Positions 12,001 through 15,000 of a stretch of 62,349 bases of DNA are shown piece by piece. The position numbers are program-made. The stretch comes from a virus (taxonomy: Duplodnaviria > Heunggongvirae > Uroviricota > Caudoviricetes): IMG/VR virus record IMGVR_UViG_2718218228_000003. One strand, given 5' to 3'. Each line of letters starts with the position of its first letter. Within the stretch, counting starts at the first letter, position 1.

Positions 12001-15000
12001 TTTGGGGGAGAGGGAAGTCATGAATCTGGACAAGCAAGATGCACAAACTATTAGCTCATACATAAGGGCATCAAGACCAGATTACAAAGGTCCGGTATTC
12101 GTAGATTTATCTCGCCTTGAATAGATTTACATGTGGAAAGCAAGGTTACTTACGCATTTTGTTATTCGAACGATGACTAGCAACATTACAAAACCAATGT
12201 AACTGGAAGAGGTGAATATGAGCACACTCGCAGACCTTATTCATGCCGATATGGCTGAAGATGGAGCAAGGCGTAATAGGTACTGGAAATCATCGAGCCT
12301 TCCAGTTTGTGAAAGATTCAATCACAGGCCAAAACCAAAACGTAGCCGACGAGACAAAGTGTTGAAAAAACTCATGCAAATTAACATGGCTGGTTTTGTC
12401 AGATTCGTGAGTGAAACGACTAACGGTGATTGATATGGACGAATCAAGAAAGCAGTTTGAGGAATACGTTGCCAAAAAATTGAGATTACCATTCGAGATG
12501 ATAACCGAGGCAAGAAATGGTGATAGGTACTTCGCATTTTCAAGCATGGATATTCGTCACTCCTTAAATGATTGGTGGGCTTTATGGCAGGCATCGCGAG
12601 CAGCTATTGAACTGGATATCGACTGGCCCGAATCGAATGACGACCTTTGGAAAGATGGTGAAGAAGGTGCTTATGCGATGGGTTATGAGGATGGGCGTGA
12701 CAAAACGGTAATTGCAGTAATGAAAGCTATCAGAGCCGCTGGAATTAAAGAGAAGAATTTTCGATGAAGCAAACAATCTTCCTCCGAACTAAGCAACAAC
12801 AGCAAGCTGCAATAAATGCCATCCTCGCAACACCACTCGATAAAGACAAGCCAGTCACCATCCGCATTACTGACTACAAGCGCAACCTTGACCAGAACGC
12901 AAAATTTCACGCGATGCTGGCGGATATCGCTCGTCAGGTTCAATGGTGCGGCAAATGGTTAAAACCAGAACAATGGAAGGTTTTGTTGATCAGCGGTCAT
13001 GCAGTGGCAACAAAGCAGGAAGCTGATGTTTTGCCCGGGCTTGAAGGCGAATACGTCAACATTCGCGAAAGCAGCGCGCAGATGAGTGTGAAGCGTATGG
13101 CAAGTCTGATTGAGTACACGACAGCATGGGCTATTGGTCAGGGTGTCAGATTTACCGACAGGAGGTACGAATGAGACGACAGCGACGAAGTATCACCGAC
13201 ATAATCTGTGAAAACTGCAAATACCTTCCAACGAAACGCTCCAGAAATAAACCCAAGCCAATCCCAAAAGAATCTGACGTAAAAACCTTCAACTACACGG
13301 CTCACCTGTGGGATATCCGGTGGCTAAGACATCGTGCGAGGAATACAAGGGGGTTGACGTGATGATTTATCCGGGGCTATATTCCTCACACGCCAGCAAA
13401 ATCTGGCGTCGGGATTGGCGTCCTGGATAGAGACCGCGACAGATACACGCCGCGAGCGTGTTTTTTATTGTCGTATGCACGCGCACATCTGAATTATGGT
13501 GGGCTGTGTGGGGGCGGAGAGATCCGCGCCGGTCGGTTTCCCGGTTACGCCAACCCTGCACAGTTCACCACCAGACGATTGGCGTCGTCGGTGGTGAGTT
13601 ATTAAGAAACCACTCGAGGGCGTCATTATGACAACTCAAATCTCTGTTGAAACTCTCTCCCCGATCACCCATAACCAGATTCCTGTTATTACCACCGAAC
13701 TTTTGGCGCAGTTGTACGGTGCTGAAGTTAAGAACATTCAAAATAACTACGCCAGAAATGCTGAGCGCTTTATTGAAGGAAAGCATTTTTTCAAAGTGGC
13801 TGGCGATGCCCTGAAAAATTTGCGGGTTACTTTAAGTAACTCACAAAATTTGCAACCATCTTTAAGAGGTTTGCAAATTTCCCCCAAAACTCGCTCCCTC
13901 ATCCTCTGGACAGAACGAGGCGCAGCCCGTCACGCCAAAATGCTCGAAACCGATCAGGCTTGACGTTATAGGTTGTTACTTGTAGATTTATCTTCGTGAG
14001 GCGTCAGAACCTCTCTAAAGCGGACAAACCCAACCCCGATAGTGTTGGATTTTTTATGCCTGTCATTTTATGGACGCATTGCGCGGTCATACCCCGAACA
14101 ATGTCGGGAGGGCGACGAATACAACACCCGAAAGGGGAATGAGTCCGCGGTTCTTTAGGCCGTTCTGAACCTCCCGACACCACAATCAGAAGTGGTAATT
14201 CAGAAAAAGCTAAAGGAGGTCGTTATGACCATGCAACTCGCCGTAGAATCCCTCGTCGTTGTTACTTACTCGAACATTCCCGTAATAACAACGGAGTTAT
14301 TGGCAACACTATACAAAACAGAACAAAAGCATATACGGCAAAATTTCAAACGTAACGAATGTCGTTTTATTGCAGGAAAACACTTCTTTAAAGTAAGTGG
14401 TAGTGAACTCGATGATTTGAGAACCTCTCAAAGAGGTTTGCAAATTTCCCCCAAAACTCGCTCCCTCATCCTCTGGACAGAACGAGGCGCAGCCCGTCAC
14501 GCCAAAATGCTAGAAACCGATCAGGCGTGGGAAGTGTTCGAAAAACTGGAAGACTGCTATTTCAGCCAGACTTCGAAAAGCGCAGGTCATCACGAGAAGA
14601 AAACCAGCGAGCTTTCTGCAAAAGATGCAAACAGTCTGGTATGGTTGTGGGATTATGCCAACCGCTCACAGGCATTGTTCCGCGAACTGTATCCGGCGCT
14701 AAAACAAATTCAATCGAACTATTCCGGCAGATGCTACGACTACGGCCATGAGTTTTCGTATGTTATCGGAATGGCGAGAGATGTTTTAATCAATCACACA
14801 CGAGATGTTGATATTAATGATCCAGACGGACCAACGAATCTTTCCGCATGGGTAAGACTTAAGAACAAAGAATTACCTCCTGCACTGCATCGCTACTGAC
14901 AATTGACAACTTAACAAACCCAGCTTCGGCTGGGTTTTTTATTGGTGAATTTTCAATATGAGAGGACATGACAATGAACGAGCTGATAAATAGCAACGTC

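Follow-up and report, generated by a model that had tools for sequence, protein, structure and literature searches.

Antirepressors can induce prophages without repressor cleavage and can act across prophages within one cell. The immI region of phage P22 sits among late genes, as does one of the two cassette-bearing loci described here. In the immI regions of P1 and P7, the antisense RNA C4 controls icd-ant (Citron & Schuster 1990, as cited in PMC12197685 and PMC7313666). Gifsy-1 carries an isrK-orf45-anrP-isrJ system in which orf45 has been described and antQ lies upstream of isrK (PMC4825925). The short IsrK RNA is linked to activation in Gifsy-1 (PMC4825925), whereas the P1 model is one of repression by C4, and the same complementarities underlie both. 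Across phages, domain swapping within the Bro network, together with C4/isrK immunity RNAs, has been described as well (PMC10111431).

The DNA analyzed here (the window; 62,349 nucleotides) is an Stx2c prophage of Escherichia coli O157:H7. It has two pairs of direct repeats within its antirepressor-like genes (table 1). These repeats are most probably conserved junction segments of modular Bro-network antirepressor genes, in which N-domains and their control cassettes are swapped onto a locus-bound module.

Table 1. Features of the antirepressor-like loci in the window, in order of position.
Feature	Position	Strand	Evidence or remark
Cassette 1 promoter-like site, TTGACG-18-TATATT	13354..13383	+	~7 nt before isrK-like RNA
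Leader RNA 1: c4-a1b1 targets 13377-13429 and isrK-like short RNA 13390-13466	13377..13466	+	Rfam
Upstream ORF, 57 codons, GTG start	13458..13631	+	Stop overlaps gene 1 ATG (ATGA)
C4-type antisense RNA, cassette 1	13492..13575	+	RF01695, 66.7 bits, GA 45, full length
C4 downstream targets TTGGCGT 13579-13585 and GAAACC 13606-13611	13579..13611	+	Directly 5' of gene 1 Shine-Dalgarno
Gene 1, ORF6N-only protein, 111 aa	13628..13963	+	Pfam; PGAP "missing C-terminus"; alignment with P0042 and CB9615
Short repeat copy A, conserved 3' end of ORF6N domain	13848..13962	+	Self-BLAST
Cassette 2 promoter-like site, TTGACG-17-TAGATT	13960..13988	+	-35 hexamer contains gene 1 stop
Leader 2: upstream targets TCAGAAC 14004-14010 and CTAAAG 14015-14020; weak hairpin and T-run ~14030-14056	14004..14056	+	
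sRNA-Xcc1-type RNA	14103..14186	+	RF02221, 73.5 bits, GA 53, full length
Xcc1-type downstream targets TTCAGAA 14199-14205 and CTAAAG 14210-14215	14199..14220	+	Overlap gene 2 Shine-Dalgarno AAGGAGG
Gene 2, intact ORF6N + P22_AR_C antirepressor-like protein, 224 aa	14225..14899	+	Pfam; PHROG 377
Short repeat copy B	14415..14529	+	Self-BLAST
Shared module copy 1: linker, P22_AR_C, stop, terminator	14591..14939	+	Self-BLAST; Pfam; hairpin 14916-14937, then T-run
Rha + KilAC (ANT) protein, 242 aa	14968..15696	+	Pfam; tblastn
Tail cassette left end: 15-mer GGATTATGCCCACCG at 41106-41120, merging into terminator hairpin 41113-41130	41106..41130	+	
Mnt-like ribbon-helix-helix protein (Arc family), 114 aa, divergent from arc-ant	41121..41465	-	Pfam Arc, 72.9 bits; PHROG
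Arc-like protein, 57 aa	41549..41722	+	Pfam Arc, 22.1 bits (GA 20.4)
sar-like antisense RNA candidate over ant start	41727..41793	-	RF00262, 29.5 bits, below GA 43, E = 0.002
Ant, P22_AR_N + P22_AR_C, 307 aa	41793..42716	+	Pfam, 135.8 and 102.6 bits; PHROG 245
Shared module copy 2 with terminator	42408..42756	+	Self-BLAST; hairpin 42735-42752, then T-run

Antirepressor-like genes of the prophage

The original prediction counted four antirepressor-like genes in the window, a count borne out by Pfam and PHROG, and a fifth, a KilA-N gene at 24194-24691, is to be added. None of the five proteins matches an NCBIfam model. The products of gene 1, gene 2, and ant are all candidate antirepressors, with activity predicted from their domains.

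The label "Roi-like," previously given to the ORF6N gene, was misplaced and belongs to the next gene, which encodes the Rha/KilAC protein. The product of that gene is 81% identical over 242 aa to an ORF in the nin region of HK022 (tblastn). The HK022 record has no roi annotation, and we take the position of this ORF to be that of roi. The Rha/KilAC gene is, on this alignment, a probable Roi homolog. The window shares the nin-region neighborhood of HK022 Roi, but its ORF6N genes have no counterpart there: neither gene 1 nor gene 2 matches HK022 positions 30000-40751 at 1e-3 (tblastn).

The resident CI is a LexA-family repressor of the self-cleaving type, so an antirepressor would be dispensable for SOS induction. 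Some other antirepressors, including those of Gifsy and N15, are under SOS control. No LexA box (CTGT-N8-ACAG) lies near the cassettes, and SOS control is therefore not indicated for them.

A C-terminal module shared by the nin and tail loci

Gene 2, in the nin region, and ant, between the tail genes L and K, end in the same module. Self-BLAST of the window confirms both of the predicted pairs of repeats. The longer pair aligns at 90.9% identity over 350 columns, with 30 mismatches and two one-base gaps (E = 6e-136). It had been described as ~330 bp (14610..14940 and 42425..42757) of near-identical sequence; the repeat is real and longer, at 350 bp, but "near-identical" overstates an identity of 91%. 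In the coding part there are 27 mismatches in 312 nt, and 94 of 104 residues are identical. Differences among the 104 codons are synonymous in 13 cases and nonsynonymous in 10, the latter being at both ends of the module. The copies do not differ in the 18-nt terminator hairpin, ACCCAGCTTCGGCTGGGT, which is followed by a T-run of 6 in one and 5 in the other.

Pfam identifies the module as P22_AR_C (PF10548, GA 22.4), which scores 99.0 bits in residues 124-196 of gene 2 and 102.6 bits in residues 207-279 of Ant. The domain is joined to ORF6N in gene 2 and to P22_AR_N in Ant. As predicted, two proteins with unlike N-terminal domains thus share one C-terminal module and its terminator. Searches of solved structures with phmmer returned no match for Ant and only chance matches for gene 2 (E > 0.3). 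An AlphaFold2 model of gene 2, based on a shallow alignment of 22 sequences, has pLDDT values of 70-87 in the ORF6N part and 40-60 in the module, where three helices are predicted. This architecture is common: there are 6242 homologs, and the best 120 of the 6242 all combine ORF6N with P22_AR_C. Proteins identical to that of gene 2 bear the name "phage antirepressor Ant" on 435 contigs; some RefSeq records mistakenly break the intact gene into pseudogene fragments.

The shorter pair of repeats lies in genes 1 and 2 and is 93.0% identical over 115 bp (E = 4e-43); its core, 13865-13958 versus 14431-14524, has one mismatch (93/94). With E-values of this size, chance similarity is practically inconceivable as the source of either pair, and the same can be said of misassembly. 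At least nine independent complete genomes, as well as the phage genome record vB_EcoS_phi330, have the arrangement at 100% identity, and it is therefore no assembly artifact.

The tail copy of the module belongs to a cassette that, in comparison with empty sites, is evidently an insertion between L and K. Empty L-K sites have neither the cassette nor the 15-mer, and the start of K is different. The left-end 15-mer also has matches within the shared module, at 14650-14664 and 42467-42481. Within the cassette, the sar-like candidate consists of a 14-bp hairpin and a T-run on the minus strand (fold z = -6.5); no minus-strand consensus promoter was found for it.

Natural variants support recombination. 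In DEC5E (O55:H7), STEC346, and RM10410, the nin region holds the window segment 41106-42756 behind a truncated ORF6N gene (in DEC5E with 98% identity and the same Arc protein accessions). The crossover in all three is at the 5' edge of the module, and the left junction is at the 15-mer GGATTATGCC(A/C)ACCG. In O55:H7 CB9615, a single gene joins the 5' part of gene 1 to the 3' part of gene 2 within the 115-bp repeat. The module of the P22_AR_N gene in the nin region of DEC5E is 100% identical to that of the ORF6N gene in the nin region of CB9615. Another prophage of the window's own strain (350) has a Bro-N + P22_AR_C gene between L and K, and the tail module of the window is 100% identical to the module of the Bro-N gene. 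The window's own two copies, however, are alike at only 89.7-90.9%. Judged by these alignments, the module goes with the locus and not with the N-domain. The cassette appears to have been transferred between the tail and nin regions, in a direction that is suggested by a single 15-mer.

The original prediction regarded the repeats as substrates for recombination between the early and tail regions. The tail cassettes in the nin regions of the three strains agree with this, but the deletion or inversion variants sought do not appear among 5426 genomes. Both copies are on the plus strand; their recombination would therefore remove the intervening sequence instead of inverting it, and inversion is rejected. 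A chimeric query for the deletion junction (left flank of copy 1, module, and gene K) had no match covering at least 80% in 5426 complete E. coli genomes; the reciprocal chimeric query, a positive control, was found in three genomes. As no deletion product between the 350-bp repeats was found among the 5426, recombination between copies within a genome is hypothetical.

These data also bear on whether the modules are kept alike by gene conversion that continues between the two loci of one prophage. The copies share identical tracts of 68, 30, and 29 bp that would permit RecA or Red pairing, the phage encodes Exo, Bet, and Gam, and the nin copies of other phages hold tail-type bases in the first ~60 bp, in a patchy n/t pattern. 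Nonetheless, such concerted evolution is improbable, because the two copies in this genome are no closer to each other (89.7-90.9%) than to copies in other genomes (up to 100% identity) and because the 5426 genomes contain neither a hybrid nor a deletion junction.

In the exchange of cassettes that we favor, a fixed 3' part of ~350 bp (linker, P22_AR_C, stop codon, and intrinsic terminator) would remain with the locus. The 5' part, an N-domain (ORF6N, P22_AR_N, or Bro-N) with its own promoter and regulators, would be exchanged, as a cassette, between lambdoid prophages of one host. On the right, the crossover would take place at the module's 5' edge; on the left, the join would be made by short homology or illegitimately. 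Between L and K, the module would thereby end the P22_AR_N ant gene inside an immI-type cassette like that of P22 (mnt-like, arc-like, sar-like, ant). In the nin region, it would end an ORF6N gene that has its own promoter, its own leader, and an Xcc1-type RNA read as a C4-like antisense repressor. Gene 2 and Ant would share one effector or putative partner-binding C-domain, with a different control circuit for each. The locus may then illustrate how antirepressors are rebuilt, the C-domain and terminator serving as a docking point for N-domains that bring interchangeable circuits of C4-type RNA, Xcc1-type RNA, or Mnt/Arc/sar.

Predicted antisense RNAs and the truncated gene of the nin region

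Gene 1 had been predicted to be a truncated relative of the gene that follows it, and Pfam and alignments agree. ORF6N (PF10543, GA 27.8) scores 75 bits in gene 1 and 74.5 bits in gene 2, spanning profile positions 3-86 of 86 in both. Homology between the two genes stops at 13962, and the break at 13962/13963 coincides with the cassette 2 promoter. By alignment, gene 1 is what is left of a common 234-aa ORF6N + P22_AR_C allele, namely its 5' part. It is cut where the promoter of the second cassette starts, and the -35 hexamer of that promoter gives gene 1 its stop codon. The description of the upstream copy as a partial duplicate does not hold: there is no local duplication, and the copy is the conserved ORF6N-domain end of the resident allele, whose 3' part was displaced by the second cassette.

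More generally, the repeats could have arisen by recent duplication inside the prophage, with the module and the ORF6N end copied locally to yield young paralogs. Such an origin would account for two pairs of repeats that are both direct and in one genome, and for 94-bp cores that differ by one base. The long repeat, however, is 9% diverged, yet each of its copies has a counterpart of 94-100% identity in other prophages. The short repeats are separated by a foreign cassette that occurs alone in many viral contigs (its leader, 13998-14229, is found there without gene 1), and local tandem duplication is ruled out on this ground. Furthermore, the ORF6N end hardly varies from allele to allele (alignment A4), and its high identity is accordingly a matter of conservation or exchange and not of a recent copy. 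Recent duplication is, on balance, highly improbable. Cassette 2 behaves in these comparisons as a unit, and under cassette exchange it would have landed within an older ORF6N + P22_AR_C allele, leaving a 111-aa ORF6N stump and the isrK/C4 leader of the stump.

Predicted small antisense-RNA control elements, absent from the original prediction, organize this locus. Upstream of gene 1, the cassette 1 promoter-like site is conserved in seven prophages (alignment A2). Leader 1 matches c4-a1b1 (RF03163, 48.4 bits; GA 46.7) and isrK (RF01394, 74.7 bits; GA 50), and a terminator scan places the end of the isrK-like RNA at a hairpin and T-run (13445-13467). The C4-type RNA has the antisense elements ACGCCAA (13547-13553) and, in a loop, GGTTTC (13535-13540). 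These elements are complemented by TTGGCGT, which occurs at 13415 and 13579, and by GAAACC at 13606; pairing at a1 requires one G-U pair. Across the seven prophages in alignment A2, the b1/b'/b2 and a sites covary three-way, with three b-specificities and three a-specificities. Both the C4 and the Xcc1-type RNA finish in CACCA-like tails, which fits the processing model. By analogy, cutting of C4 from the leader by RNase P, a translation block, and premature termination would fit the P1/P7 model. In cassettes gated in this way, the C4-type RNA is predicted to pair with two positions at the ribosome-binding site, blocking translation, and the short leader RNA, which bears the same two sites, could titrate it.

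With its control elements, gene 1 may be more than a relic. It keeps a whole ORF6N domain, a Shine-Dalgarno sequence, a promoter, and C4 targets; its frame remains open in lineages that are 14% diverged, and its leader is 97.3% identical in VT2-Sakai and many Stx1/Stx2 phages. The 111-aa protein might therefore be kept as a DNA-binding or decoy protein, or the isrK/C4 RNAs might act in trans on antirepressor genes that other prophages carry with matching specificity. Retention for such functions is possible but doubtful, given that both PGAP and the WGPS6 authors call gene 1 a pseudogene. A dN/dS of 0.25 is rejected as a sign of function because the lineages compared hold different ORF6N alleles. 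For annotation, the 111-aa "pseudogene" is still equipped with a predicted complete RNA control unit.

In cassette 2, the Xcc1-type RNA has a comparable layout. Its antisense elements are the loop CTTTAG (14153-14158) and the single-stranded TTCTGAA (14163-14169). In viral contigs, the hypervariable loop and the 3' single strand of such RNAs each have cognate sites, one set at the start of the next gene and the other ~100 nt upstream, before a T-run. A T-run is present at the relative position of leader 2 in 73 of 94 viral loci; the terminator hairpin of leader 2 itself is weak. Cognate complementarity between loop and target holds in 80 diverse viral Xcc1-type loci, and none of 2000 permutations reaches the observed value. 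Here and in 77 viral loci, the Xcc1-type RNA lies directly upstream of a Bro-network gene, with cognate targets at the start site.

In the literature, the sRNA-Xcc1 family is treated as an integron-borne or virulence-related, trans-acting sRNA, described for Xanthomonas; the RF02221 match has no integron context in the window. We tentatively suggest, at somewhat less than even chances, that the Xcc1-type RNA in the 452-bp segment between the short repeats is an antisense "immunity" RNA of the C4 type but of a second structural class, that the nin region is an array of such cassettes, and that they confer cross-immunity in trans. If so, RF02221 members in many genomes would flag RNA-gated antirepressor cassettes, and sRNA-Xcc1 matches beside phage genes would probably be antisense regulators of antirepressors. 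In Stx phages, the nin locus would hold such cassettes in tandem, with differing RNA specificities. Cassette 1, although truncated, may have been kept for the trans action of its RNAs on prophages in the same cell, such as Stx2a phages that share its leader. Antirepressor action in E. coli O157 bears on induction of Shiga-toxin phages, and an RNA-based cross-immunity network could influence it.

Comparison with known systems

The tail cassette corresponds to P22 immI in order and orientation: across 41121-42716 there are a divergent ribbon-helix-helix gene, a small Arc-like gene, a hairpin antisense candidate, and ant. It differs in being a moron-like insert between lambda-type L and K that replaces the first codons of K. 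Moreover, the Mnt-like protein is 114 aa long, the sar match is below the Rfam threshold, and the resident repressor is a LexA-family CI.

Cassette 1 has the same layout as immI of P1 and P7, namely a promoter, a1/b1, C4, a2/b2 at the ribosome-binding site, and an antirepressor gene. The heteroimmunity of P1 and P7 is paralleled by the specificity-changing covariation across prophages. Conversely, the window locus is in a lambdoid nin region, the controlled gene is of the ORF6N type and truncated, and for the intact gene 2 a structurally different RNA of the sRNA-Xcc1 class would have the same part.

Shared with Gifsy-1 are an isrK match with its terminator, an ORF whose stop overlaps the next start (ATGA), and an antirepressor-like gene that follows. 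The ORF at 13458-13631 is the positional analog of orf45, and its translation is predicted. A gene for a Q-like antiterminator adjoins both loci, but Q of the window is downstream (16960-17448), whereas antQ is upstream of isrK. The upstream ORF of the window has a GTG start only, its antirepressor gene is truncated, and no isrJ match is found in 13300-15000 even at E <= 1.

The locus as a whole is ordinary phage mosaicism, a case of the known domain shuffling in the Bro network and no new kind of system. Like other members of that network, it has one C-domain combined with ORF6N, P22_AR_N, or Bro-N, adjoined by C4/isrK-type RNAs. To this it adds a module that appears to be bound to its locus, a crossover at the 5' edge of the module, a left end at a 15-mer, and a probable movement of a cassette between the tail and nin regions.

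Repeats and antirepressor domains in the prophage

Both repeats of the original prediction are borne out by a self-BLAST of the window. The long repeat (14591-14939 and 42408-42756) shows 90.9% identity over 350 columns (E=6e-136), and the short repeat (13848-13962 and 14415-14529) shows 93.0% identity over 115 bp, with a single-base difference in the 94-bp core that had been predicted. All copies are in direct orientation. Across 104 codons, the copies of the long repeat have 13 synonymous and 10 nonsynonymous differences, the latter at both ends; the longest perfect tracts are 68, 30, and 29 bp, and the 18-nt terminator hairpin is without difference.

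On the basis of Pfam domain hits (see table), the module common to gene 2 (224-aa protein) and Ant (307 aa) is the known P22_AR_C domain (PF10548) plus a linker and the terminator. The architecture of gene 2 is common (6242 homologs; both domains in 120 of the best 120), and its exact protein is on 435 contigs as "phage antirepressor Ant." In strain 644-PT8, PGAP/RefSeq annotates the 224-codon ORF, although intact, as two "incomplete" pseudogenes, an ORF6N piece and a P22AR_C piece. The label "Roi-like" is misplaced on the ORF6N gene, as the HK022 nin-region ORF matches the Rha/KilAC gene (81% identity) and none of the ORF6N genes. A KilA-N protein is a fifth antirepressor-type relative. A search for a solved relative of P22_AR_C found none, and AlphaFold models this region poorly. 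No LexA box was found near the cassettes.

The region 13400-15800 is 100% identical to at least nine complete Escherichia coli O157:H7 chromosomes (strains 350, 644-PT8, 180-PT54, 7636, and others) and to Escherichia phage vB_EcoS_phi330. In the RefSeq annotation of 644-PT8, lambdoid prophage genes (exo-bet-gam, CI of the LexA family, cro, cII, O/P, ninB, and ninE) are followed by the antirepressor genes, ninG, Q, three tRNAs, stx2c A/B, lysis, head, and lambda-type tail genes, and then dacD and sbmC. Given the stx2c A/B and lambdoid genes in this annotation, the window is an Stx2c-converting prophage. The window has one copy of the IS3-family element (BLAST and Rfam) versus two in 644-PT8, whose early region is rearranged, and lacks an ∼2.4-kb duplication of head-tail genes found in 644-PT8. 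An alignment offset of about 325 bp suggests that the two also differ in copy number of the in-frame repeat in the portal ORF.

Features of the window
Feature	Coordinates	Location or content	Basis
lambda cIII thermoregulator element	5983-6041
IS3-family element (IS1203/IS629 type)	10075-11385	early region	BLAST, Rfam
ALIL frameshift pseudoknot	10934-11050	in IS3-family element
Promoter-like site	13354-13383	cassette 1 leader; TTGACG-18-TATATT
c4-a1b1	13377-13429	ahead of gene 1	Rfam, gathering threshold
isrK	13390-13466	ahead of gene 1; terminator at end	Rfam, gathering threshold
C4 antisense RNA	13492-13575	ahead of gene 1	Rfam, gathering threshold
Gene 1, 111 aa	13628-13963	ORF6N only	Pfam
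Promoter-like site	13960-13988	cassette 2 leader; TTGACG-17-TAGATT
sRNA-Xcc1-type RNA (RF02221)	14103-14186	ahead of gene 2	Rfam, gathering threshold
Gene 2, 224 aa	14225-14899	ORF6N + P22_AR_C	Pfam
242-aa protein	14968-15696	Rha + KilAC (ANT)	Pfam
stx2c subunit B	19069-19338
STnc100-family sRNA	19413-19624	directly downstream of stx2c subunit B	strong match, 158.5 bits (GA 47)
KilA-N protein	24194-24691
Portal ORF, 1021 aa	30768-33833		644-PT8 annotation
Tandem repeat in portal ORF	32355-33373	162 bp (54 codons), 6.3 copies, 98% identity
Tail gene L	40406-41104
Terminator hairpin, + strand	41113-41130	directly after L, mid late operon
Ant, 307 aa	41793-42716	P22_AR_N + P22_AR_C	Pfam
Tail gene K	42770-43507

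Cassette insertion and exchange

Gene 1 corresponds to the first 111 codons of a common 234-aa allele, with two substitutions relative to the version in O55:H7 strain CB9615, and is close in identity to the protein of that allele (P0042), which is on 998 contigs. Its homology to gene 2 ends at 13962, where the −35 hexamer of cassette 2 comes next and provides the stop codon of gene 1. Many viral contigs without gene 1 carry the leader of cassette 2 (13998-14229), some together with the ORF6N domain (to about 14570) and others alone. In CB9615, a single gene is made up of the 5′ part of gene 1 and the 3′ part of gene 2, joined inside the 115-bp repeat. The truncation at the −35 hexamer, the free-standing leaders, and the single gene of CB9615 argue that the tandem arose by insertion of a second cassette into an allele already in place. 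The short repeat is the almost invariant end of the ORF6N domain. Gene 1 is truncated, as originally predicted, and the duplication proposed with it gives way to conservation of this domain end. O157 and O121 Stx2a phages share the junction of gene 1 and cassette 2 (85-96% identity). Just before the conserved domain end, a 10-residue unit, NLRVTLSNSQ (30 bp), varies from one to three tandem copies among ORF6N alleles: three in TT12A (locus L003, 1029-1421), two in O121 (L004, 1023-1385), and one in the window (13820-13870).

The long repeats had been proposed as substrates for recombination between the early and tail regions, and natural recombinants are found. A chimeric query for the deletion junction found none in 5426 genomes, and the reciprocal junction, with the tail cassette in the nin region, is in three genomes. 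In O55:H7 DEC5E and STEC346, the segment corresponding to 41106-42756 (mnt-like, arc-like, and ant) is located in the nin region, with a truncated ORF6N gene on one side and the Rha/KilAC gene on the other; Arc protein accessions of DEC5E are the same as those of the window. The module of DEC5E is 100% identical to the nin module of CB9615, and that of STEC346 is 97.7% identical to nin modules of TT12A/O121. For the tail module of the window, a 100% identical counterpart ends a Bro-N + P22_AR_C gene that lies between L and K in a different prophage of strain 350. By the informative sites, it is the locus and not the N-domain that the P22_AR_C module follows, which places the exchange crossover at the 5′ edge of the module.

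The 15-mer GGATTATGCC(A/C)ACCG forms the left junction in DEC5E and STEC346. The window has it in each copy of the module (14650-14664 and 42467-42481) and also at the tail cassette's left end (41106-41120). At empty L-K sites, the 15-mer is missing and the K protein has a different start, MTQTESAIL... (MTQTESAILAHARRC) versus MLYSNIL... (MLYSNILAHARRC) at occupied sites (42770-42810 versus comparison loci L130-L132), so the tail cassette carried in the 15-mer together with the new beginning of K, replacing its first codons. We read the 15-mer as a leftover of a truncated module. This reading favors, tentatively as to the direction of movement, a tandem of the nin type as the origin of the tail cassette.

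Between L and K, the layout of P22 immI is reproduced: upstream of ant are an Arc-like gene (57 aa) and, divergently oriented, an Arc/Mnt-like gene (114 aa). Spanning the ant start on the opposite (minus) strand is a sar-like hairpin RNA, a sub-threshold Rfam match (29.5 bits, E=0.002; fold z = −6.5). In the mnt-like/arc-like intergenic region (41466-41548), inverted motifs of the type GGTGCCA/TGGCACC recur and may serve both ribbon-helix-helix proteins as operators.

Predicted antisense RNAs ahead of genes 1 and 2

The original prediction saw the repeats and overlooked RNA regulators ahead of genes 1 and 2, which are matched in Rfam. In cassette 1, both copies of TTGGCGT (13415 and 13579) are complements of the C4 element ACGCCAA, and GAAACC at 13606, adjoining the Shine-Dalgarno, is the complement of the C4 loop GGTTTC. 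In cassette 2, the loop CTTTAG and single strand TTCTGAA of the Xcc1-type RNA are complementary to sites within 14004-14020 and again to 14199-14215, overlapping the gene 2 Shine-Dalgarno. A 57-codon upstream ORF that shares an ATGA stop/start overlap with gene 1 fits the description of orf45 in isrK-orf45-anrP of Gifsy-1 (PMC4825925).

Across an alignment of seven prophages, changes in the cassette 1 leader are concerted at the upstream target b1, the C4 element, and b2, the target at the ribosome-binding site. These are UUGGCGU, ACGCCAA, and UUGGCGU in the window; UUAGGAAC, GUUCCUAA, and UUAGGAAC in CB9615 and STEC346; and UUAGCAC, GUGCUAA, and UUAGCAC in DEC5E. The a sites covary too (O121 pair, UCCUUUUUC / GAAAAAGG; DEC5E pair, GUUUCGA / UCGAAAC).

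A pattern scan of IMG/VR identified 98 distinct Xcc1-type RNAs, and 80 loci with 57 distinct loops were parsed. Across the 80, complements of the hypervariable loop fall at +25 to +39 and, a second time, 75-125 nt upstream; those of the 3′ single strand fall at +7 to +22 and around −100. Cognate pairing exceeds noncognate pairing, and the observed value was reached in 0 of 2000 permutations in each of four tests. In 73 of 94 loci, a T-run precedes the RNA by 40-80 nt. Among 77 ORFs that follow the RNA, domains are P22_AR_C (18), KilA-N (16), Bro-N (10), Rha (9), AntA (9), ORF6N (8), and P22_AR_N (7). Because of the cognate targets upstream and at the start of the next gene, the T-run, and the Bro-network genes that follow, Xcc1-type (RF02221-class) RNAs of viral contigs (loci L010-L129) can be read as putative C4-like antisense regulators. 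The published descriptions consulted present sRNA-Xcc1 as a Xanthomonas/Xylella virulence or integron sRNA; one paper does no more than remark that it adjoins an ORF6N gene in an APSE phage.

Predicted regulation and known systems

Three antirepressor-type proteins, two with one C-domain in common, would each be silenced by a separate circuit. C4-type RNAs are predicted to mask the ribosome-binding site, and a short leader RNA with the same target sites could titrate the C4-type RNA. We infer that such titration reconciles the P1 account, in which C4 represses, with the Gifsy-1 account, in which the short IsrK activates. The tail cassette would be under Mnt/Arc and possibly also the sar-like RNA. 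As CI belongs to the self-cleaving type, we speculate that the main role of the antirepressor-type proteins may be cross-talk between the numerous prophages of O157. New here are the anatomy of the exchange and the interpretation of sRNA-Xcc1 as a C4-like RNA. The repeat pair itself is a clear yet ordinary case of the "Bro network," in which domains are swapped among the same Pfam families with C4/isrK immunity RNAs adjacent (PMC10111431).
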